DNA of 64,000 nt from Longimicrobiales bacterium. GTDB lineage: Bacteria; Gemmatimonadota; Gemmatimonadetes; Longimicrobiales; Gaopeijiaceae. Positions 2,938-56,109 of this stretch are shown here, piece by piece. Numbering within the stretch: the stretch's first letter is position 1; every line of letters begins with the position of its first letter. Made by a program: the position numbers and the translations under genes. The notes under the pieces were generated by a model, which had not been told where the DNA came from, did not search any database, and worked only from the letters and a program-made list of their open reading frames with translations. The DNA lies in NCBI GenBank assembly GCA_965197725.1, contig CBDANQ010000040.1, forward strand, positions 11,709 through 75,708. The letters are read 5' to 3'.

Positions 2938-3261
2938 CAGTTGCTCGCTCCATCGATACCTCTCTCCCATGAGCTCGTCAGCTTCTACCAGGCCGACGTT
3001 CGCGTTCGCATGGCTGGGCCGCTCGCTCAATTCCGCTTCCAGGAGAGCGAGTGGAAGTGTCAGGCCGTCGGTGACGGGTCGAGTATCAACCTGCGGACCT
3101 GGGGCGGTGATTTGGACCAGCTGGTCATCGAGGCCGAACTCGCGATCCTCCGCCGCCATCAGCCCTTCAAGGAGGCCCAATAAATGCTAGCGATAAAGGC
3201 CGAGGTGTGGCAGGACATGTTAGAACGCGTTGAGTTGATTCGAGTCCCCGGCGAGGCTCTG

Positions 3262-4719
3262 GAAGCTGACCCAGCCGTAGTTGAAGGTCCCTGAAGAGGG
3301 AAAAGAAAAGTGGTGGCTCCGAGGGTGCCCGATCCGATAGGATCGGGTGCGCTAAAAACCCAAAAACGGAGCCACCACGATGAAGAGAACGTACGAAGTA
3401 GCGAGTGACACGGACAGGCGTGCGATGGCTGAGTTCGTGAAGCGAGAAGGCCAGTTCCTGCTGCCGATGGTCGAGCTCGTAGAGCACACGGAGCTCGCGA
3501 TCGACGAAGTCGTCCAGGTGATGGGCCGAGCGACGATCGAGGCGGTACTCGAGATGAGCGCCGAAGGTGTGGCGGGCCCGAAGCAATCGGGCAAGGCACG
3601 CGAGGAGGGGGCGACCGGTCTGGTACGGCCGCCAGGGCGGTCAGGTCTACCTGTCGGACCGAAAGGTCCGTATCCAGCGGCCTCGGCTGCGTGAGCGGAC
3701 TGGCGGCCAGGGCGGCGAGGTCGAGGTGCCAGCGTACGAGGCGATGCGCAGGCCGGGCGCCATGGCGGACCGAATGTTGGAGATCCTGATGGCAGGTGTG
3801 AGCACCCGGAAATACGGCCAGGTGATCGGCGAGATGGCCGACACGGTGGGGGTGAGCAAGTCGTCGGTGAGCCGCGAGACGATCGAAGCGTCGGAGCGCG
3901 TGCTGAAGGAGCTGATGGAGCGGCGGCTGGACGCATGGGATCTGTTGGTGATCTACCTGGACGGTATCCAACTCGGTGCGCACCACGTACTTGCGGCTGT
4001 GGGCGTGGACACGGACGGCAAGAAGCATGTGCTGGGGATGCGGCAGGGAGCGAGTGAGAACACCGAAGTGACGACGGCCCTGCTGCAGGATCTGGTCGAG
4101 CGGGGTCTGGACCCCGAGTGTCGACGCCTGTTCGTGATCGATGGCTCGAAGGCGTTACGGAAGGCGATTGTTCAGGTGTTCGGCGCGGGCCACTCGGTCC
4201 AGAGATGCCGAAATCACAAGCTCAGAAACGTGCTCGCTCACCTACCGAAGGATCAGCACCCGCAGGTGAAGGCCGTGATCCGCGCGGCCTGGAAGCTCGA
4301 CGCGAGGGACGGCGTGCAGAAACTCGAGCAGCTCGCGCGGTGGCTTGAACGAGATCAGCCGTCGGCCGCAGCGAGCCTGAGGGAGGGGCTGGGTGAGATG
4401 TTCACAATCAACCGGCTTGGGCTACCGCCTCGGCTGAGGAAGTGCCTCGGCACCACGAACCTGATCGACAGCACCCACGCAGGCGTGAGGCAGAAGACCT
4501 ATAGGGTGACGAACTGGAAGAACGGAGCGATGGCACTGAGATGGGCCGCTGCCTCCTTCGTCGAGACCGAGAAGAACTACCGACGCATCGTCGGCTTCGA
4601 CCAACTCTGGATGCTCAAAGCTCACCTCGATGACCGCGAGCCGGTTGCCGAAATGAAGATGGCAGGTTAATCACGAAAGCCTCGGAGTCACCACCTTCAA
4701 CTGAGCCGGGGACACCTTC
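3262..4719 (+). mobile_element. IS256-family element, copy 1 (isoform A)
   Basis: Imperfect 27-bp terminal IRs (GAAGCTGACCCAGCCGTAGTTGAAGGT / ACCTTCAACTGAGCCGGGGACACCTTC) and a perfect 8-bp target duplication AGGCTCTG (3254-3261, 4720-4727). Confidence 0.95.
3380..4670 (+). pseudogene. IS256 (Mutator-type DDE) transposase, +1 frameshift near 3607-3611
   Basis: ORFs 3380-3694 and 3567-4670 join into a homologue of the intact 429-aa copy at 19884-21173. One extra G in a G run. Motifs YLDG, FVIDG, QRCRNHKLRN. Confidence 0.9.
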
Positions 4720-4802
4720 AGGCTCTGGCCGAGCGGAAACACCTCGATGGCTCCGAAGTGGAAGCTCTTTTGTCACCGCCATTGTCACCGTAGCCAATTC
4801 CG

Positions 4803-6261
4803 GATGGTGTCCCGCTGACAGTTGAAGGTGGTGGCGCCGGAGAGTCTCTTGGTTAGCCTGTCTTTCTCATTTCGGCAACCGGTTCATGGTCGTCGAGGTG
4901 GGCCCTGAGCATCCAGAGCTGGTCGTAGCCGATGATCCTCCGGTAGCTCTTCTCGGTTTCCACGAACGAGGCCGCAGCCCAGCGCAAGGCCATCGCTCCG
5001 TTCTTCCAGTTAGTCACCCTGCGGGTCTTCCGTCTTACGCCCGAGTGGGTGCTGTCGATCAGGTTGGTCGAGCCCAGGCACTTCCTCAGCCGCGGTGGGA
5101 GGCCGAGCCGGTTTATGGTGAACATCTCGCTGAGGCCTTCGCGCAGGCTGGCTGCGGCCGAGGGGTGGTCGCGCTCGAGCCATCGGGCGAGCTGCTCGAG
5201 CTTCTGCTCGCCCTGCTTCGCGTCCAGCTTCATCGCCGCCCGGAACGCCGCCTTCACCTGAGGATGCTGATCCTTCGGCAGATGACCCAGCACGTTGCGG
5301 AGCTTGTGGTTGCGGCAGCGCTGGATGGGGTGACGTTGGCCGAACACCTTCTCGATCGCCTTCCTGAGCGCTTTCGAGCCATCGATCACGAACAGCCGCC
5401 GCCTGCCCGGGTCCAGGCCGCGCTCGACCAGATCCTCTAGGAGCGCGCTGGTCACCTCGGCGTTCTCACTCGCTCCTTCCCTCACGCCCAGCACGTGCTT
5501 CTTTCCGTCTGAGTCCACGCCTACCGCAGCAAGCACGTGGTGCGAGCCCATCTGGATCCCGTCCAGGTAGATCACCAGGAGGTCCCACGCATCCAGCCGG
5601 CGCTCCATCAGCTCCTTCAGCACGCGCTCCGAGGCCTCGACCGTCTCACGGCTCACCGCCGACTTGCTCACCCCGACCGGGTCGGCCATCTCACCGATCA
5701 CACGGCCGTACTTTCGCGTGCTCACCCCCGCCATCAGGACCTCGAGCATCCGATCCGCCACGGCGCCCGGTCTCCGCATCGCTGCGTACGCCGGCACCTC
5801 GACCTCGCCACCCTCCCCGGCGCGCCCCGGCGCCTGAGCCGTGGCCGCTCCACACGCACCTTCCGGTCCGACAGGTAAACCACACCACCCTGCCGGCCAT
5901 ACCACACCGTGTCGTCTTCCGCTCGTGACCGACCTGCCTGCTTCACGCCTGCCACACCCTCGGCGCTCATCTCCAGCACCGCTTCGATCGTCGCTCGTCC
6001 CATCACCTGGATGACTTCGTCGATCGCGACCTCCGTCTGCTCCACGAGCTCAAGCATCGGAAGCAGAAACTGCCCCTCCCGCTTCAGGAACTCCCTGATC
6101 GCGCGCTTGTCCGCCCGATCCCTTACCTCGTACGTTCTCTTCATCGTGGTGGCTCCGTGTTGGGGTTTTTGCCTACCCGAGCCTATCGGCCCGGGACCCC
6201 CGGAGCCACCACTTTTCTTTCTCCCCTATCAGGAACCTTCAACTACGGTTGGGACAGCTTC
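4803..6261 (-). mobile_element. IS256-family element, copy 2 (isoform B)
   Basis: Near-identical to 19834-21290. Terminal IRs present, flanked by AATTCCG on both sides (7-8 bp duplication). Confidence 0.95.
4853..6144 (-). pseudogene. IS256 transposase with a 2-bp (CG) duplication frameshift near 5820
   Basis: Comparison with copy 3: CCCCGGCGCGCCCCGG here versus CCCCGGCGCCCCGG. Confidence 0.9.
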
Positions 6262-6480
6262 AATTCCGGCCTCCCAACGCGGAGGCCCCGCAACCGCCTA
6301 AACGGTTACGGGGCTTCCCCTTGTTAGCGGCCTTCCAATATTGCACACATGTGGCCATCGAAAATTGCACACTTGGCGCTTTGACCTAGCGGGCGGGAGA
6401 GTGGGGATGTAGGCACCACCCCGAGCGATCTTCCGGCCGATCCACTCACTTGGCGCCTCCACCGAGAACGTGGAGGTGCA

Positions 6481-7509
6481 ATGATCGGAAGGGAGAAGCG
6501 CGTGCTGCTCCGTCATTACCTCGAGCAGGGGATGAACAAGGCGGTGATCGCCCGGGATCTGGGGGTCAGTCGCCGTACCGTGTACCACTGGATAGAGACC
6601 GGTCAACTGGACCGGGAGTTGGACGAAGAGCGTGTCGGGTACGGTCCGAGATGTCTGATGCCGTCGAAGCTGGATCCGTACAAGCCGTTGATCGACACGC
6701 GTCTCAAGGAGTACCCGAAGCTCACGGCTGTACGGCTCTTCAAGGAGGTCCGGGCCGCTGGCTACCCGGGCAGTTACAACCAAGTGAAGCGCTATGTACG
6801 CAAGGTCCGGCCTCGACCCCCAGAGGAGCCGGTCGTGCGCTTCGAGACGGCGCCTGGGCGTCAGGGCCAGGTGGACTTCGCCCACTTCCGGCTACCGTGG
6901 GGCAAGCGTTACGCACTAATCGTCGTGCTGGGCTACTCGAGGCTGCTGTGGGTTCAGTTCTACACCCGGCAGACCATGAAGGCCCTGATGCATGGCCTGG
7001 AGTCTTCGTTTTCCTACTTCGGCGGCGTGCCCTCAGAGCTTCTGTTCGACCAAATGAAGGCGGTCGTCATCGAGGACGGTCGATACGACGATGGTGCCCT
7101 CGTCGAGAACCCGGAGTTCATGCGCTACGCCTACCACTGGAACTTCAGGATCCGCGCGTGCCGACCCTATCGGGCTCAGACCAAGGGCAAGGTGGAGCGG
7201 CCGATCCGCTACCTCAGGGAGAGCTTCTTCTACGGGCGCACCTTCACGTCGGACGACGATCTCAACGCGCAGGCCCTTCATTGGCTTGAGACGGAAGCCA
7301 ATGTGCGCAGCCACGGAACGCTGAAGGAGCGGCCCCTCGATCGCTTCGAGCGTGAACGACTGCTCCTCGAGCCCTTGGCGACTCGCCCGTATCACCCCCT
7401 CGTCCTGCCTCCGGATCGCTCCTCACCCGGCACGACGTCCTTGCCGGCCATCCACGTCGAGCGACGTCCCCTCACGGCCTATGCCCAGATCGCGGGAGGG
7501 GACCGATGA
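6481..7509 (+). CDS. istA: IS21 transposase IstA
   Basis: N-terminal HTH; RFETAPGRQGQVDF, LLFDQMK, QTKGKVERPIRY. Confidence 0.95.
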   Translation: MIGREKRVLLRHYLEQGMNKAVIARDLGVSRRTVYHWIETGQLDRELDEERVGYGPRCLMPSKLDPYKPLIDTRLKEYPKLTAVRLFKEVRAAGYPGSYNQVKRYVRKVRPRPPEEPVVRFETAPGRQGQVDFAHFRLPWGKRYALIVVLGYSRLLWVQFYTRQTMKALMHGLESSFSYFGGVPSELLFDQMKAVVIEDGRYDDGALVENPEFMRYAYHWNFRIRACRPYRAQTKGKVERPIRYLRESFFYGRTFTSDDDLNAQALHWLETEANVRSHGTLKERPLDRFERERLLLEPLATRPYHPLVLPPDRSSPGTTSLPAIHVERRPLTAYAQIAGGDR

Positions 7510-8348
7510 AGGCTGCCGCTCGCTCTCGCCGTGACCGGATCCGAGCCCAGCTCGCCGATCTCAAGATGCCCGGTGCGCTGGAGGCCATCGACGACGTCCT
7601 CACCGGGGTCGATGGCGGAGGCGTGACGGCCTCGGAGGCCATCGAGCAACTCCTCGGTGCCCAGATCACGCTGCGCAACAACCGCCGCCTTCAGGCTGCG
7701 ATGCGCTCGAGCCGGCTACCGGGCATCAAGACCCTCGACGACTTCGACTTCAGCTTCCAGCCCTCGATCAAGCGCGAGCAGATCGACTCGCTCCACGAGC
7801 TCGGCTTCTTGGAGCGTAAGGAGAACGTGATCTTCCTCGGCCCTCCGGGCGTCGGCAAGACGCATCTCGCGATCAGCCTCGCCATTGCCGCGGCTCAGAG
7901 CGGGCGCAGAGTCTACTACGGCGCTCTGGCCGACCTCATCACCTCGCTCGAAGAAGCCAAGACCACCGGCCAGCTGGGACGCCGCCTCAAGATCCTCACC
8001 TATCCTTCGCTCCTGGTCATCGACGAGATCGGCTACCTGCCGGTCAGCCAGACCGGCGCAATGCTCTTCTTCCAACTCATCAACCGGCGCTATGAGCGCG
8101 CATCCACTGTGCTGACCTCCAATAAAGGCTTCGAGGAGTGGGGCCAGATCTTGGGCGACGAGGTCATGGCCGCTGCGCTCATCGATCGCCTGCTGCATCA
8201 CTGCCATATCGTCAACATCCGCGGCAGCAGCTACCGGATGCGCAAGCACACCGACCTCTCCAAGATCCTCCACTCGCCTCCTGCGGAGTCGAGCCCTTCA
8301 CCCCCGAAGAGAAAGAGAGCAAGAGCAAAGGAGAAAACGACGAACTAG
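7506..8348 (+). CDS. istB: IS21 helper ATPase IstB
   Basis: Walker A GPPGVGKT, Walker B LLVIDEIGY, DRLLHH; ATGA overlap with istA. Confidence 0.96.
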   Translation: MKAAARSRRDRIRAQLADLKMPGALEAIDDVLTGVDGGGVTASEAIEQLLGAQITLRNNRRLQAAMRSSRLPGIKTLDDFDFSFQPSIKREQIDSLHELGFLERKENVIFLGPPGVGKTHLAISLAIAAAQSGRRVYYGALADLITSLEEAKTTGQLGRRLKILTYPSLLVIDEIGYLPVSQTGAMLFFQLINRRYERASTVLTSNKGFEEWGQILGDEVMAAALIDRLLHHCHIVNIRGSSYRMRKHTDLSKILHSPPAESSPSPPKRKRARAKEKTTN

Positions 8349-9070
8349 AGGCTCGTCATCTCCGCCAAGTGTGCAATTTTCGATGGCCAGACCTGTGCAG
8401 CTTTCGATGGCCGTTGACACTCCGACGCATCGGTATCGGCGTCACGACAGCCTCTTAGGGCGCTCAGGACTCCCGGCCTGCGTCGTGTTCTCCGTGGACC
8501 TGAGCTATCTAACACTTATCAGGCCCCCGGAGTCAAGAGCGCGCATGTCCCCCGGCGCGTCGCGGAGCGGCGCGTAATGAAGTGAGCGTCGGTCGTCGAG
8601 TCCTCTGACTTGGTTTCCGTCAACAGGTGCGAGCACTTCCGAGCTCTGCACCAAACACTTATCGAGGTTCAACCGCCGGGTGCCCTTCGAGGCGAGCTCG
8701 AAGGAGCGGCGGAGCAGGAGCCTGCTGTGGGCTCCTACGACCTAGAAATTCATCTGTGCCCTCGTGCCGTCCGACTCCATTCAAGGTGAGCAGGCTCGGG
8801 CCGTGAGGCGCCGGACCAGTTAGCTCCGGGCTCGGGTGAGGGGCAGAGTCCTGAGTTAGACCGACTTCGATGTGTGGGGAGCGGGAGGAGGCGTCCAATC
8901 AAGCGAGGCGGCTGTCAGGCATCCGGTGCCCGCTCGAGTTAGAAATCGGGGCTCGCGACCTCCCCTCCCCGTCAGGTGCGTGTATAGAAGCGTTCGGTGT
9001 CGAATGCCTGGCCAAGGTGCGCGCTTGCCGTCGGGCCATGTGGCCGATGGTGTCGTCGTTGGGCGCCGAG

Positions 9071-9104
9071 TTCAGGGACCTTCAACTACGGCCGGGTCAG
9101 CTTC
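9071..9104 (-). repeat. Solo IS256 left-end inverted repeat
   Basis: TTCAGGGACCTTCAACTACGGCCGGGTCAGCTTC matches the reverse complement of the copy 1 left end at 33 of 34 positions. No transposase adjacent. Confidence 0.85.
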
Positions 9105-9587
9105 CGAACGACTGGACCTTGAGCTACGTGTGGGCCAGCGACGATGTCTATGCTGTCGTACTGGAGGGCGAAGGAGCGTGTGCGGGCGCTTAGGTCGTGC
9201 CGGTGGGTGACGGCTACGAGGCGACGGAGGTGACTGGATGGTGAGTAGACGGCACCCCGCTGGCCTGGAGTCCGTGTCCGGGACTTTACCTGGGGACCTG
9301 TCGCGCTAACTCTTGCCACTCTCGACGGTCCTCGATCATGGGAGCCCGACTTAGACGGCTCCGTACAATTCGGTGCACAAGCTTCGTGCCGCCGTCATCA
9401 CCGTCTGTAGGACCGCGACCGAACCACCCGACGTCCAGCGCCCGAGCCCAACGAGCCCGGCACCAAGTCGGCAGCACTCGGTCCATACCGAACCGCCTCG
9501 GCCCACAAGACCGGCCCGCATCTGATGGGTCGTGCTCCTCGCCCGGACCTACTCCTTCTCACCTCGACGGCTCCCGCAGGGCTCGAT

Positions 9588-9749: not shown

Positions 9750-9958
9750 ATCTATCACCTCAATGATGGTGTTTGTCGTGCCGGAAGATGTGTGAGGCGT
9801 CCCCCTGGCTCTGTACGTAGGCTGACGTAGGCGCGGATGACGTATAATACGTACTCGGGGGATTGCAGGAGCAGCCCCAACGCGAGAGTGGGCCCACGAG
9901 ACCATCGAGGGGCTATTTTGTAGACTCCTGTGACTGTGTCCCGAAATGCGGCGGAAAG

Positions 9959-10200
9959 CTCCTTCGACCCCTGAGTCTCCCGCGTCCAGTCGGCCGTCGG
10001 ATTCATTGCCCACCTCTATCCCTGCCCATCCACGCATCCCTGCGGCGCATTCCGACTGACTGAGCCCCTCCTCCCGTTCAGCCGGCCTCGCTTCGCGTGG
10101 AGCGCCCGCACCGCTTCCGCCCGGCACCCCCGAAGCCCGCCACCATTCCCCTTCCCGCCTCACCTCCTGCCACGGCACCCCTTTTAGACCTCCTATCCTT
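9959..10200 (+). mobile_element. IS91/ISCR-like element 3' end (ori end), copy A
   Basis: Near-identical to the end of 35263-36668; terminates in TTTTAGACCTCCTATCCTT. Confidence 0.85.
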
Positions 10201-12197: not shown

Positions 12198-12479
12198 GTG
12201 GGAATCTTTCAGATTGCAATGCTCGTGGCGACGTTTCTGTGCTCCCTGGTGGCAGGCTTCCTGTTTGCGTTTGCGGTCATGGTAATGCCGGGCATAGGAA
12301 CCCCGAATGACCGGGAGTTCATCCGCGCTTTTCAGGTGATCGACGGCGTCATCCAGAACAATCAGCCGCTTTTTCTCCTGGTATGGGGCGGTTCGGCCTT
12401 GGCTTTGGTGGCGGCGGTTGCGCTTCGCGTCGGTGCCCTCGACTTCGACCAGTCCGTGCCCGACTCCTTCGACCCCTGA
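12198..12479 (+). pseudogene. DUF1772/anthrone-oxygenase-like membrane protein, truncated and fused to the IS91 transposase tail
   Basis: LVAGFLFAFAVMVMPG...FIRAFQVIDGVIQNNQPLF, switching at 12421 to LRVGALDFDQSVPDSFDP from the IS. Confidence 0.75.
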
Positions 12480-12705
12480 GTCTCCCGCGTCCAGTCGGCC
12501 GTCGGATTCATTGCCCACCTCTATCCCTGCCCATCCACGCATCCCTGCGGCGCGTTCCGACTGACTGAGCCCCTCCTCCCGTTCAGCCGGCCTCGCTTCG
12601 CGTGGAGCGCCCGCACCGCTTCCGCCCGGCACCCCCGAAGCCCGCCACCATTCCCCTTCCCGCCTCACCTCCTGCCACGGCACCCCTTTTAGACCTCCTA
12701 TCCTT
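12421..12705 (+). mobile_element. IS91/ISCR-like element 3' end, copy B
   Basis: Near-identical to copies A, C and D, with the same terminus. Confidence 0.87.
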
Positions 12706-14988: not shown

Positions 14989-15061
14989 CCGGAGCGCCGC
15001 CTGACGCCCAGCTCGGAGCCGTCAGCTTCTTTCATCGCTTCGGCTCGTCCCTCAACGTCCA
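14989..15061 (+). repeat. 73-bp internal fragment of the IS91/ISCR transposase
   Basis: Matches about 35276-35348 (GAPPDAQLGAVSFFHRFGSSLNV). Confidence 0.85.
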
Positions 15062-19833: not shown

Positions 19834-21290
19834 GATGGTGTCCCGCTGACAGTTGAAGGTGGTGGCGCCGGAGAGTCTCTTGGTTAGCCTGTCTTTCTCA
19901 TTTCGGCAACCGGTTCATGGTCGTCGAGGTGGGCCCTGAGCATCCAGAGCTGGTCGTAGCCGATGATCCTCCGGTAGCTCTTCTCGGTTTCCACGAACGA
20001 GGCCGCAGCCCAGCGCAAGGCCATCGCTCCGTTCTTCCAGTTAGTCACCCTGCGGGTCTTCCGTCTTACGCCCGAGTGGGTGCTGTCGATCAGGTTGGTC
20101 GAGCCCAGGCACTTCCTCAGCCGCGGTGGGAGGCCGAGCCGGTTTATGGTGAACATCTCGCTGAGGCCTTCGCGCAGGCTGGCTGCGGCCGAGGGGTGGT
20201 CGCGCTCGAGCCATCGGGCGAGCTGCTCGAGCTTCTGCTCGCCCTGCTTCGCGTCCAGCTTCATCGCCGCCCGGAACGCCGCCTTCACCTGAGGATGCTG
20301 ATCCTTCGGCAGATGACCCAGCACGTTGCGGAGCTTGTGGTTGCGGCAGCGCTGGATGGGGTGACGTTGGCCGAACACCTTCTCGATCGCCTTCCTGAGC
20401 GCTTTCGAGCCATCGATCACGAACAGCCGCCGCCTGCCCGGGTCCAGGCCGCGCTCGACCAGATCCTCTAGGAGCGCGCTGGTCACCTCGGCGTTCTCAC
20501 TCGCTCCTTCCCTCACGCCCAGCACGTGCTTCTTTCCGTCTGAGTCCACGCCTACCGCAGCAAGCACGTGGTGCGAGCCCATCTGGATCCCGTCCAGGTA
20601 GATCACCAGGAGGTCCCACGCATCCAGCCGGCGCTCCATCAGCTCCTTCAGCACGCGCTCCGAGGCCTCGACCGTCTCACGGCTCACCGCCGACTTGCTC
20701 ACCCCGACCGTGTCGGCCATCTCACCGATCACACGGCCGTACTTTCGCGTGCTCACCCCCGCCATCAGGACCTCGAGCATCCGATCCGCCACGGCGCCCG
20801 GTCTCCGCATCGCTGCGTACGCCGGCACCTCGACCTCGCCACCCTCCCCGGCGCCCCGGCGCCTGAGCCGTGGCCGCTCCACACGCACCTTCCGGTCCGA
20901 CAGGTAAACCACACCACCCTGCCGGCCATACCACACCGTGTCGTCTTCCGCTCGTGACCGACCTGCCTGCTTCACGCCTGCCACACCCTCGGCGCTCATC
21001 TCCAGCACCGCTTCGATCGTCGCTCGTCCCATCACCTGGATGACTTCGTCGATCGCGACCTCCGTCTGCTCCACGAGCTCAAGCATCGGAAGCAGAAACT
21101 GCCCCTCCCGCTTCAGGAACTCCCTGATCGCGCGCTTGTCCGCCCGATCCCTTACCTCGTACGTTCTCTTCATCGTGGTGGCTCCGTGTTGGGGTTTTTG
21201 CCTACCCGAGCCTATCGGCCCGGGACCCCCGGAGCCACCACTTTTCTTTCTCCCCTATCAGGGACCTTCAACTACGGTTGGGACAGCTTC
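19834..21290 (-). mobile_element. IS256-family element, copy 3 (isoform B, intact)
   Basis: Terminal IRs; flanks GCTGTCAA / GCTGTCAC (7 of 8 duplication). Confidence 0.96.
19884..21173 (-). CDS. IS256-family transposase (429 aa)
   Basis: Uninterrupted ORF with GVSTRK, YLDG, FVIDG, QRCRNHKLRN, STNLIDS. Confidence 0.96.
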   Translation of the reverse strand: MKRTYEVRDRADKRAIREFLKREGQFLLPMLELVEQTEVAIDEVIQVMGRATIEAVLEMSAEGVAGVKQAGRSRAEDDTVWYGRQGGVVYLSDRKVRVERPRLRRRGAGEGGEVEVPAYAAMRRPGAVADRMLEVLMAGVSTRKYGRVIGEMADTVGVSKSAVSRETVEASERVLKELMERRLDAWDLLVIYLDGIQMGSHHVLAAVGVDSDGKKHVLGVREGASENAEVTSALLEDLVERGLDPGRRRLFVIDGSKALRKAIEKVFGQRHPIQRCRNHKLRNVLGHLPKDQHPQVKAAFRAAMKLDAKQGEQKLEQLARWLERDHPSAAASLREGLSEMFTINRLGLPPRLRKCLGSTNLIDSTHSGVRRKTRRVTNWKNGAMALRWAAASFVETEKSYRRIIGYDQLWMLRAHLDDHEPVAEMRKTG

Positions 21291-21830
21291 GCTGTCACCA
21301 GCATTTTGATATAGTTCAGTGAAGCCCGCACGCGGAGGATACGGCCTCGCTTGCCACGCGTCCGCCTCCCTACCAGAAGTCTCTAGCAATAAACCCACGT
21401 CTACGCCCACGTCGGTGAGCACACGGCTGGCAAACGTGTGTCGAGCTGTCAGAAATCCCGCACCGAGGTTCATAGGGTCCATCTCGTGCGGGACACTCCA
21501 GGCGCCGGTCTCCCACGTTCACCCAAATGCTGCCTCCAGCACATCCCGTGAATCGACATCGAACTCTGCCTCGAGGAAGAGGAGTCGGTCGCGCCATCCG
21601 ATCTCATCTTCGGCAAGGCCGAAGAGGCTGAGCTGGATAGTCTGGCTCAGGAGGAGCTCGAGACCCTGCGTGACGAAGTGAAAGCGCTGAAGCAGGAGGT
21701 CAAGAAGGCATCAGAGTTGGACAAACCGAAGATCGCCGAGGAGATCGACGCGCTACGCACTGAGATCGAGATCCTCGAAGCCGAGTTCGAAGCGCGGGAG
21801 GATGACGCGGAAATGGAAGAGGGCGACTAG

Positions 21831-23325
21831 CAGACCGTGGATAAAGTCCGGTCATCGCTGTTGTGTTAAATCAGGAGGACACGAGGGTTTTTGCAGCGAG
21901 GACGGCGATGGCGGTAGGTAAGCGGCCCGAGGCTCGGCAGGGCGAGATGTTCGTGGTGGCGAGCGAGATTCGGGCCTTGGACAACCCGTTCTACCGGGCC
22001 TTGAACGAGCTTCTGGCGAAAAGCGGGTTTGACGAGTTCGCGGAAGAGGCATGCCGTGAGTTCTACGCGGACAATCGGGGTCGGCCGGGGATTGCTCCCG
22101 GGGTGTATTTCCGAATGATGATGGTGGGCTACCTGGAAGGGATCGGCTCGGAGCGGGGCATTGCCTGGCGGTGTGGGGACTCGTTGTCGTTGCGTGAGTT
22201 TCTGGGATACGGGTGGGCGAAGAACCCGCCGGAGCATTCGACCCTGTCGAAGACGCGCAAGCGCCTGAGCGTGGAAGCGCACGCGGCGGTGTTCGGGCGG
22301 GTGCTGGAGCTGCTGAAGGGGTCGGGGTTGCTGAGCGGCAAGACGCTGGGCGTCGACTCGACGACGCTGGAGGCGAATGCGGCGATGCGCACGATCGTGC
22401 GGCGCGACGACGGGTTGGGCTACGATGAATGGCTGCAGCAGGTGGCCCGGGCGTCGGGGATCGAGACGCCGACGCGCAAGGATCTGACGACGCTGGACCG
22501 GAAGCGTCCGAAGAAGGGCTCGAACAAGGACTGGGTGCATCCGCACGACCCGGAGGCGCGGATCACGAAGATGAAGGACGGCAGGACGCGCCTGGCGCAC
22601 AAGTTGGAGCAGGCGGTCGACATGGAGACCGGTGCGCTTGTGGCGGTGACGGTGCAGACGATGGACGGGGGAGATGTGGCGTCGCTGCCCAACACGCTGG
22701 ACGAGGCAGAGCGGCAGCTGGAAGTAGTGCAGGTAGAGCCCGAGGAAGTGGTGGCCGACAAAGGCTACCACTCGAACAAGACCATGACGGGCGTGAAGGA
22801 GCGGGAGCTGCGCAGCTATGTGAGCGAGCCCAACCGCGGGCGCCGGAAATGGAAGAACAACCGGGACGCGCAGAAGCCGACCTACGACAACCGCCGCCGG
22901 ATCCGCGGCAACCGGGGGATGCGGCTGCTGCGCCAGCGCGGCGAGAAGGTGGAGCGGGGGTTTGCGCACTTGCTTGTGACCGGAGGGCTGCGTCGCGTCC
23001 ACATACGGGGCCAGGAGGAGATTCGAAAACGGATGTTGATCCACGCGGCGGCCTTCAACCTCGGCCTTCTCATGCGCAAGCGGTTCGGGGTTGGAACCCC
23101 CCGTGCGTTACAGGGCCTCGCTACCGTACAAGCTGCGCTCGCAACTCAGGTTACAACCCGCGTCTCGCGCTTTTTCCGCCGTATTCGGCGCTATTTCGCC
23201 TTCCTTGGGCCGAATATCGCCTCGTCAGACCCCAAAACCCGCTTCTTGCACAACAACACAGCCCCCGCGTGTCTGCCTTATCTCCCACCCATCATCCGCT
23301 GGGAACCTATTTCTTCCACGGACTG
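21831..23325 (+). mobile_element. IS1182/IS5-like element
   Basis: IRs CAGACCGTGGATAAA / TTCTTCCACGGACTG; CTAG duplicated at 21827-21830 and 23326-23329. Confidence 0.9.
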
Positions 23326-23329
23326 CTAG
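21863..23329 (+). CDS. IS1182/IS5-type DDE transposase
   Basis: GRPGIAP (DUF772-like), GVDSTTLEANA, VADKGY, RGEKVERGFAH. Likely start at ATG near 21908. Confidence 0.92.
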   Translation: MLNQEDTRVFAARTAMAVGKRPEARQGEMFVVASEIRALDNPFYRALNELLAKSGFDEFAEEACREFYADNRGRPGIAPGVYFRMMMVGYLEGIGSERGIAWRCGDSLSLREFLGYGWAKNPPEHSTLSKTRKRLSVEAHAAVFGRVLELLKGSGLLSGKTLGVDSTTLEANAAMRTIVRRDDGLGYDEWLQQVARASGIETPTRKDLTTLDRKRPKKGSNKDWVHPHDPEARITKMKDGRTRLAHKLEQAVDMETGALVAVTVQTMDGGDVASLPNTLDEAERQLEVVQVEPEEVVADKGYHSNKTMTGVKERELRSYVSEPNRGRRKWKNNRDAQKPTYDNRRRIRGNRGMRLLRQRGEKVERGFAHLLVTGGLRRVHIRGQEEIRKRMLIHAAAFNLGLLMRKRFGVGTPRALQGLATVQAALATQVTTRVSRFFRRIRRYFAFLGPNIASSDPKTRFLHNNTAPACLPYLPPIIRWEPISSTDC

Positions 23330-23346
23330 GTCCCGCGGGGGGCCGC

Positions 23347-33062: not shown

Positions 33063-33154
33063 GCGTAGGATGATGTATGTCGTGATCCTGGTCCGAAAGC
33101 CCGTGCCCGCCGGCTTCGGCGGATTAGCCGCCGACGTGTCCCCACTCCAGCGCC

Positions 33155-33590
33155 TCGTCTCCGCCATCCTGCTCCACCTCGACCTCCCCCACAAACCCCC
33201 GCCCCTCTCGCCCGCCCGCGGACCGCCCCAGAGCGATCTCCTCGTCGAGCTCCTCGATCAGACGCCCACCTTCGACCCCGCCGCGCCCGACCCCGTCCCG
33301 ACCAACGCTTCGCGTCGGTGCCCTCGACTTCGACCAGTCCGTGCTCGACTCCTTCGACCCCTGAGTCTCCCGCGTCCAGTCGGCCGTCGGATTCATTGCC
33401 CACCTCTATCCCTGCCCATCCACGCATCCCTGCGGCGCGTTCCGACTGACTGAGCTCCTCCTCCCGTTCAGCCGGCCTCGCTTCGCGTGCAGCGCCCGCA
33501 CCGCTTCCGCCCGGCACCCCCGAAGCCCGCCACCATTCCCCTTCCCGCCTCACCTCCTGCCACGGCACCCCTTTTAGACCTCCTATCCTT
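33155..33590 (+). mobile_element. IS91/ISCR-like element 3' end, copy C
   Basis: VSAILLHLDLPHKPPPLSPARGPP tail plus the shared 3' non-coding end. Confidence 0.88.
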
Positions 33591-35262: not shown

Positions 35263-36668
35263 CTCCACACGAGCCCCGGAGCGCCGCCTGACGCCCAGCT
35301 CGGAGCCGTCAGCTTCTTTCATCGCTTCGGCTCGTCCCTCAACGTCCACCCCCACTACCACCTCATCGTCCTCGACGGTGTGTTCGGCGAGGCTGGCGAC
35401 GGCGAGATCGAGTTTCACGAGGCCTCCGAGCTGACGCCCGATCACATACGCCAGCTCGAACCCATCCTCCAGCGACGCGTCCTTCGCTACTTCCGCCGCC
35501 ACGGGCTCCTGGACGAGCTCGACGCCGCTGGCATGCTCACCTGGCAAGGCTCGGGCGGGTTTAGCGTCGACGCCTCCGTGCGCATCGAGGGTGAGGACCG
35601 CGCGGGCATCGAGCGCCTCGTCCGATACTGTGCCCGGCCGCCCTTCGCGCTCGAACGCCTGCACGCCCTCGACTCCACCCCTGCCCTCGCTTCAGGGGCA
35701 CCCACCGAAGGTGGGTCGGCCGCGTTCTCTACCGCTTCCCGAAACCCGACGTCCACGGCCGCACCGAGCTGCTGCTCACACCCCTCGAACTCCTCGAGGC
35801 CCTCGCGACCAACGCTTCGCGTCGGTGCCCTCGTCCCACCCCCGCGCGTCCATCGTCACCGCTACCACGGGGTTCTGGCTCCGAATGCCAGGCTGCGGCC
35901 CTACGTCGTCGCATTCGGTCGGCCCGAGCGCGTGCCCGAGGCGCCTGTGCCCGAAGGCGATGCCACCTCACCTGGCGTGCCCCCCCCCCGAGCCGACCCC
36001 CGCTTCCCGCCCCTCCCCTGCCCGGGGGCACCCACCGCAGGTGGGTCGCTGGGCCGTCCTTCTCGCGCGCATCTACGACGTGCTGCCGCTCCTGTGTCCC
36101 GCAGGGCACCGCGCGAAGCGTGGTCCGCCGAGATGAAGATCCTCGCGTTTGCCTTCGGCGAGCTCCGCTTCGCTCCGGTTCTGACCGATCCGCCCGTCGT
36201 CTCCGCCATCCTCCTCCACCTCGACCTCCCCCACAAACCCCCGCCCCTCTCGCCCGCCCGCGGACCGCCCCAGAGCGATCTCCTCGTCGAGCTCCTCGAT
36301 CAGACGCCCACCTTCGACCCCGCCGAGCCCGACCCCCACCAAAGGTGGGGTACCCGTCCCGACCAACGCCTCGCGACCACGCTCCGCGCGGTGCCCTGCC
36401 CTCGACTTCGACCAGTCCGTGCCCGACTCCTTCGACCCCTGAGTCTCCCGCGTCCAGTCGGCCGTCGGATTCATTGCCCACCTCTATCCCTGCCCATCCA
36501 CGCATCCCTGCGGCGCGTTCCGACTGACTGAGCCCCTCCTCCCATTCAGCCGGCCTCGCTTCGCGTGGAGCGCCCGCACCGCTTCCGCCCGGCACCCCCG
36601 AAGCCCGCCACCATTCCCCTTCCCGCCTCACCTCCTGCCACGGCACCCCTTTTAGACCTCCTATCCTT
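35263..36668 (+). mobile_element. IS91/ISCR-like element, 5'-truncated, copy D (transposase pseudogene plus ori end)
   Basis: HRFGSSLNVHPHYHLIVLDG (HUH), GFSVDASV, ERLVRYCARPP, RYHGVLAPNA. Disrupted by several small hairpin insertions. Confidence 0.9.
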
Positions 36669-55889: not shown

Positions 55890-56109
55890 GAAGGGTGATC
55901 GGAAAGGGAGATGGGACCGTGCCACCGCAACCCACACACTCGTTTGTCCTTTCAGCCATGGCGTTGGGCACATGGCGACCAACGCTTCACGTCGGTGCCC
56001 GCAAGGCTACGACTCCCCGTCGTTCCTTGCCTGAACGCGCGCAAGCGCGGGGCACCCACGCCGTATGGCGTGGGTCGCGCGGCCCACTCCCCTTTTCCGA
56101 TCACCCTTC
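55890..56109. mobile_element. 220-bp MITE between ribH and nusB
   Basis: Perfect 16-bp terminal IR GAAGGGTGATCGGAAA, imperfect to about 30 bp. CA on both flanks. No coding capacity. Confidence 0.82.

Follow-up and report, generated by a model that had tools for sequence, protein, structure and literature searches.

Described systems of short palindromic DNA

The closest described counterparts of the hairpins reported here are the REP sequences with their RAYT enzymes. Parts of PMC6006769, PMC8266576 and PMC3733652 present REPs as GTAG- or CGTC-tagged imperfect palindromes of 20-30 bases with a fixed foot, a bulge and a variable stem, occurring in clusters and in some cases as in-frame intragenic copies, all of which recalls the family below; one section of PMC8266576 calls their dissemination poorly understood. 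A second system is IS1272 (IS1182 family), for which the portions of PMC5678879 on inverted-repeat-replacing transposition describe a full IS, with a transposase and terminal inverted repeats, that removes a whole 22-30 bp inverted repeat. A third is the Ssn nuclease with its NTS/SRM sequences: in the relevant part of PMC11893778, the SRM consensus starts with a CGTC-type motif, and the gene it flanks is a small one of the GIY-YIG type. Lastly, the palindromic elements of Rickettsia are inserts tolerated in frame in core genes (PMC3733652, in part), as some of the present hairpins are.

The hairpins, termed units, are described from a window, that is the whole stretch of 64,000 nucleotides analysed (G000:C40:11709-75708, G000 being the genome of the window). 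Rickettsia palindromic elements are longer than the units and restricted to one genus. Replacement and self-nesting, both observed for the units, are not described for them in the part of PMC3733652 concerned. The units share with REPs the short imperfect palindrome, the variable stem and the multicopy state, whereas their feet are GGG(C/T)ACC and GGTC, base counts show no GTAG/GTGG tag 5' of the foot, and no cognate Y1 HUH gene flanked by units was found. They lie singly or nested in other elements and not as extragenic doublets (BIME/REPIN), they overwrite about five bases, they enter REPs, tRNA genes and themselves, and the same sequence is found in two phyla. The removal of target bases, the lack of duplication and the hairpin targets resemble IS1272 as it appears in those portions of PMC5678879; the unit, in contrast, is an element of 22-28 bases, 3-8 bases are lost, and the target stems stay. 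Moreover, the unit ends match neither the MITE ends nor those of the IS1182-like element resident in this genome. An IS1182-like replacement in this genome was ruled out, as 30 full copies show CTAG-type duplications. With the SRMs, as portrayed in the same part of PMC11893778, the units have in common a short oriented single-stranded DNA hairpin with non-palindromic feet, but the CGTC-type tag is absent and no small GIY-YIG gene flanks them in six genomes.

IS91/ISCR-like copies in the window

The element that hosts most units of the window is present as four copies:

9916..10200, plus strand: copy A, right end only, no unit
12421..12705, plus strand: copy B, cut off within its unit (12421-12438)
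33150..33590, plus strand: copy C of the IS right end, with a single intact unit at 33300-33323 (minus strand) and without units 5 and 7
35272..36668, plus strand: copy D, 5'-truncated IS91/ISCR-like element, with a right end ...ACCTCCTATCCTT common to copies A-C

The left cut points of copies A, B and C are all different, and such variable left truncation is expected of rolling-circle elements. The transposase relic of copy D matches Pfam Y2_Tnp (E 2.4e-23) and displays the HUH motif HPHYH and an RYC tyrosine motif. Against NCBIfam, the ISCR clade Ia and IS91 models score below their cut-offs for this truncated gene. The Y2_Tnp domain, the HUH motif, the shared ori-like right end and the variable left truncation place the host element in IS91/ISCR. 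Seven units lie inside the relic of copy D, whose reading frame they shift. To note, an exact 73-base copy of the 5' end of D (14989-15061) stands alone 20 kb upstream, without the right end, while IS256 copies in both orientations are clustered at 3260-9105 and 19834-21290, with an IS21 element nested among them.

Hairpin units: stems, loops and net gains

Every hairpin unit that the earlier note had listed was found, the window coordinates being re-derived:

35695..35717 (core 35696-35717), plus strand: unit 1, CACC-GAA-GGTG with an extra 5' G; net gain of 17, about 6 bases replaced
35807..35830, minus strand: unit 2, GACGC-GAA-GCGTT; net gain of 19, 5 bases replaced; a different unit type occupies the same junction in L027
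36025..36047 (core 36026-36047), plus strand: unit 3, CACC-GCA-GGTG with an extra 5' G; read through in frame
36104..36125, plus strand: unit 4, GCGC-GAA-GCGT; net gain of 17; second Cys codon of CxxC removed
36150..36180, plus strand: in-frame gain of 30 bases that belong to a second repeat family, unrelated to the units; same site filled in L036
36331..36355, minus strand: unit 5, bulged GGGTACC variant with a TTT loop; net gain of 19 relative to copy C; also in the C61 paralog
36361..36401, minus strand: unit 6 (outer), GACGC type; 5 bases replaced; broken by unit 7
36375..36396, minus strand: unit 7 (inner), GCGC-GGA-GCGT; replaces 5 bases of the 5' arm of unit 6; net gain of 17
55890..56109, no strand assigned: MITE with inverted ends between ribH and nusB, with units at 55977-56000 (minus strand) and 56050-56076 (plus strand)

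The stems differ between subtypes yet remain paired, and the loop is G-N-A in 17/28, 26/30 and 26/45 units of three sets whose search pattern does not force the loop sequence. G-N-A triloops are an especially stable motif in DNA. In the 24-mer type, the outer bases pair at 122/147 sites, which suggests a stem base with a three-base bulge; those of the CACC type pair at just 48/113. Single units fold modestly better than shuffles (z -1.0 to -1.9), with z -3.65 for 56048-56079 and z +0.70 for the nested pair, and the case for a hairpin thus rests on stems that vary while staying paired, not on energy.

The net gains had been put at 19-20 nt; in copy D they amount to 17, 19, 18, 17, 19, 19 and 17, the third value being a probable one, suggested for unit 3 by the frame-2 read-through and by homologs. 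Alignment with copy C confirmed that D has 19 additional bases at about 36335 and showed 17 more inside the 33300-type unit. Empty forms of unit 1 exist in a near-identical allele (L508) and in a contig of run X8 with a 17-base gap, and the stretch 35913-36054, unit 3 included, is matched without any difference by record 6 of run X1. As for the 30-bp double hairpin proposed at about 36150-36180, the in-frame gain is real, but the sequence is a member of a different repeat family, and shuffles fold just as well (z +0.44). This second small family (36150-36180; L036, L038, L117, L287) strikes the same IS91 codon in another genus.

Abundance in the genome and in the phylum

A strict rule returned 28 units in the genome against 0-3 for eight controls with altered feet, and a loose rule returned 37 matches against 10, 10 and 9 in three order-6 Markov genomes. 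Two bulged GGGTACC variants bring the total to 30 units. Ten of them fall within 3,890 bases of IS91 relics, in keeping with the concentration in other mobile DNA noticed at the outset, and 19 in MITEs; the remaining one lies, in our reading, in an intergenic hairpin. No unit occurs in 249,416 bases of other multicopy repeats (each of at least 400 bases). In the genus, the loose pattern and its reversed control gave 67/22 (G000), 193/40 (G001), 92/24 (G002), 62/43 (G003) and 71/42 (G004). Across the phylum, 75/401 genomes matched, most by single non-hairpin matches, with clear unit clusters in G000 (15), G001 (61), G413 (11), G315 (7), G124 (7) and G392 (4), where controls gave 0-1.

The MITE family represented at 55890-56109 (and on G000 contigs C24, C31, C32, C36, C49, C53, C56 and C61) is 49-280 bp long, with ends of two types and an interior that is a mosaic of stacked hairpin modules; the count was 12 complete copies and 26 orphan ends, and related forms occur in other genera. 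Judged by their similar ends, these MITE hosts look like non-autonomous relatives of an IS1182/IS5-like element of 1495 bp with CTAG duplications (21818-23338). The latter has 39 Pfam matches in the genome. Elsewhere in the genus, G001 has one match and three further genomes have no match, which indicates a recent burst; none of the 39 copies of this young element contains a hairpin unit. Such a relationship would let the MITEs amplify units passively but leaves the units unexplained. Outside the window, a short GGGCACC-type repeat with doubled arms beside the 3' end of a 16S rRNA gene (G000:C40:623-649) is possibly a decayed nested unit. A repeat starting GGGTACCCTGATCGCTATG, found at 5 places on G000 contigs C7, C17, C57 and C60, does not belong to this hairpin family.

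Replacement of target bases

The comparison of filled and empty sites was automated: 483 distinct units were examined, yielding 94 pairs at 44 distinct sites, some near-duplicates and three self-matches (L420, L456, L540) included. The replaced length is 5 bases at 18 sites, 6 at 16, 4 at 6, 3 at 3 and 8 at 1, and single values may be off by one because the empty state was read from other copies, whose flanks have up to 3 mismatches. In an earlier set of 77 pairs, it was 5 in 44. No flanking direct repeat of 3 bases or more, as a target duplication would leave, is present at any of the 44 sites. The element ends there are the core alone (16 sites), C-core-G (12), or one-sided and other additions (16). 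The view that gains appear beside a pre-existing CGACC has to be abandoned, since CGACC is the element's own end and units replace bases and do not add to them. Mobility and this geometry, in which units replace about five target bases without duplication, are well supported, and a hairpin of 22-28 bases probably ranks among the smallest known mobile elements.

The replaced bases overlap a hairpin loop at 20/43 sites, as compared to 87/344 shifted controls (p 0.006), while 23/43 sites are non-loop targets; a loop test based on folding, applied to the 36 sites of a smaller set, did not reach significance (p 0.22 and 0.07). Loop targets are exemplified by the last five bases of anticodon loops and by the GC-GNA of GC-GNA-GC, and because the latter is a target, units nest in units. 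The IS91 hot spots display no clear shared motif and no strong hairpin. Target structure would matter in part, with selection shaping the rest. A loop that copies the lost bases was also considered, and was rejected on the filled and empty sites.

Repeated, independent and nested events

Between copy D and the IS copies of five relatives (L006, L026, L027, L028, L051), third codon positions differ by 41-50% and second positions by 7-12%, which indicates that they diverged as working genes. L026, L027 and L028 are filled at the junctions of D or at adjacent ones, in the case of unit 2 by a different subtype, so that shared IS91 codons were struck in separate events. Two diverged paralogs of G001 (L031, L077) are filled at one same codon, and one site near the 3' end of the IS seems to have received units in both orientations (L097, L098). 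The metagenome allele L508, close to D, has unit 2, lacks unit 1 and carries an additional unit of its own. Among contigs from four studies, some are empty at 36336-36402, and others show a C-type form, a gap of 17 bases over unit 1, or one gap of 17 bases in a stretch that spans units 3 and 4 and the 30-mer. Units 5 and 7 are not bridged by the metagenome contigs compared, a set from which runs with small word shares were left out, X8 excepted.

Recent and nested insertion, as the earlier note had recognized, is evident from the differences between D and C and from unit 7 inside unit 6; nesting reaches at least three paired layers by script, and up to five right arms in L422. Its statement that insertions postdate the IS duplication is less clean. 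Units 5 and 7 of D are also present in a diverged paralog on contig C61, which departs from C and D at about 9 positions that are identical in these two; the pattern calls for short-patch conversion, a loss in C, or a double recurrence. That units may disable the IS is true as an outcome, with frameshifts here and catalytic-motif tyrosine codons lost in other copies; a defence role does not follow, because units also sit in frame in core genes. A third hairpin family, of about 40 bases, was observed in the IS91 relics L037, L480 and L145, at a shared site in the first two.

Range across phyla and target types

The exact 24-mer was found in at least 124 stretches of sequence records, which give 130 distinct flank contexts. 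Among the matches listed (80 titles), 69 are from Planctomycetota, 10 from Gemmatimonadota and 1 from an unnamed bacterium; one is an isolate (L201). Its contexts include GTAG-type and other REP-like repeats, tRNA arrays, group II introns (Rfam), IS3, IS110 and IS91. We read it as also striking the tyrosine codon of the YADD motif of a reverse transcriptase (RT; L248) and that of the IS91 RYC motif (L099, L102, L109, L145). G424, a genome of 8.5 Mb, gave 554 pattern matches versus 93 for the control, and the 400 kb of it that were scanned hold 42 hairpin rows, most of them within other repeats or earlier units. The CACC type is present in at least 121 metagenome stretches, many in one MITE family, and forms nested in-frame stacks in rpoC (L490) and in a dnaE-family gene (L464). 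By the motif rule, tRNA genes are hit 11 times in sense and 11 times in antisense, with one miscalled, and this equality points to DNA rather than RNA. An Rfam scan of 20 loci matched only host tRNAs and group II introns, with nothing for L022, L083 and L105.

Several planctomycete tRNA arrays located beside an HNH gene (L152, L162, L171, L174, L181, L183, L188, L299/L303) hold several units each, one such array being on a 94-kb contig of a viral collection. A scan of the viral collection returned mostly chance matches; of the 14 hairpin rows obtained from 120 stretches, 9 came from a single tRNA-array contig. A MITE family widespread in sediment and water metagenomes (many of L467-L579) has two fixed sites occupied by CACC-type units, and also harbors GGGTACCCATCC variants.

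Possible mechanisms of transfer

The features to be explained are the fixed feet, the exchangeable paired stems, the replacement, both orientations, the reused sites and the self-nesting. We consider it probable that the 22-28 base hairpins overwriting about five bases are non-autonomous elements moved as single-stranded DNA by an enzyme acting in trans, and we infer a two-cut single-stranded mechanism. The enzyme would recognize the fixed feet as a stem base with a 3-base bulge, would cut the target strand twice, 4-6 bases apart and often at or beside a hairpin loop, and would join the element in with 0-1 extra base per end. DNA that is transiently single-stranded and dispensable (rolling-circle IS91, REP-like repeats, tRNA arrays, introns) would gather units, whereas in needed genes only frame-keeping events would survive. 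Against this explanation, the ends vary, which is loose for a transposase, and the loop preference is partial.

Candidates for such an enzyme were sought by several routes. The four-helix-bundle PF05635 and PF13366 were each found in 0/5 genomes and DUF559 in 1/5, leaving nothing usable as an enzyme candidate. Clustering of the ORFs within 3 kb of 140 loci and of 80 metagenome loci showed that only target elements recur. A search of 400 kb of G424 for a long autonomous form, in the shape of unpaired arms, yielded matches that looked like chance or decayed units. Neither an excision product, nor a free single strand, nor an ongoing event was seen.

It is rather unlikely that the events are instead repairs, in which single-stranded DNA, structured or foreign, is cleaved by a nuclease and the gap is patched by a short hairpin copied from an RNA or DNA template (RT or polymerase template jump), about five bases being trimmed. 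The target loss and the ragged ends agree with such a process, as do the short tract common to D and the C61 paralog and the presence of TA in or beside the replaced bases at 12/37 sites versus 32/296 controls (smaller set). RT genes were found in 3/5 genomes, which are the three unit-rich ones of the genus, and not in two unit-poor ones; this comparison covers five genomes only, however, and no unit lies near any of 8 RT loci. The two orientations in tRNA genes and the stability of G-N-A triloops in DNA also argue against it.

Lower still is the probability that the units are an ordinary REP family that has lost its RAYT or Ssn-type partner, or whose partner has diverged beyond detection, with the base loss as a by-product of REP-style strand transfer. 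The size, the bulged stem, the clustering and the in-frame intragenic copies are REP-like (PMC6006769 and PMC3733652, in part). Planctomycete hosts have 6-18 Y1 matches each, and 1/30 Y1 loci has a nested unit, 1.4 kb away. On the other hand, there is no GTAG or CGTC foot, and units insert into REPs instead of forming REP doublets. No RAYT was found either: Y1_Tnp (PF01797) was present in 0/1 and 0/5 genomes of genus and family, two of them at 99% and one at 97% completeness, and a custom profile from 21 Y1 sequences gave no match. Y1 is thus missing from 6/6 genomes, although the units by which D and C differ are recent. A small GIY-YIG gene was not found in six genomes, where matches lie only in frames of 237-667 aa.

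That the IS91/ISCR transposase itself moves the hairpins, striking its own single-stranded intermediate, is very improbable. The 10 units in relics and the IS91 copies struck in many genomes would accord with it, but Y2_Tnp has no match in 2/5 unit-bearing genomes, G003 and G392 have units without such a match, G424, with its 554 pattern matches, has none either, and elsewhere most units lie outside IS91. Finally, hairpins written locally from the target's bases, as the earlier note had envisaged, or assembly artefacts are scarcely credible: the loop resembles the lost bases at a few sites (unit 1 site in L026; GC-GNA-GC targets), but local templating is unsupported because one identical 24-mer in 130 contexts replaces unrelated bases, both forms, filled and empty, turn up in contigs from independent studies and in a named isolate genome (L201), and units 5 and 7 stand at a second locus with different flanks.

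Significance

The element is a small palindromic mobile DNA, REP-like in size and shape. The family is a widespread and apparently undescribed micro-element, as first suspected: the identical 24-mer spans two phyla, and no published description was found in the open full-text literature, supplements aside, where it may be listed in repeat tables (e.g. PMC3733652, PMC11602168). It is conceivable, though somewhat short of probable, that it represents a new class of minimal mobile DNA, a bulged hairpin of about 25 bases that a new paste-over enzyme would insert into single-stranded DNA between cuts five bases apart, across phyla, parasitising mobile elements and its own loop and building mosaic MITE interiors and in-frame protein inserts layer by layer.

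How small palindromic repeats enter new sites is a long-standing open question. The dozens of filled and empty pairs provide a before-and-after view of it, with about five bases out, one hairpin in and no duplication, and this geometry defines donor and target oligonucleotides for finding the enzyme. The chemistry of an enzyme able to exchange a short piece of single-stranded DNA for a hairpin cassette would be new and might be of use in editing. The element also explains unusual peptide insertions encoded in rpoC and in dnaE-family genes, as well as broken tRNA arrays and mosaic MITEs in metagenome assemblies.
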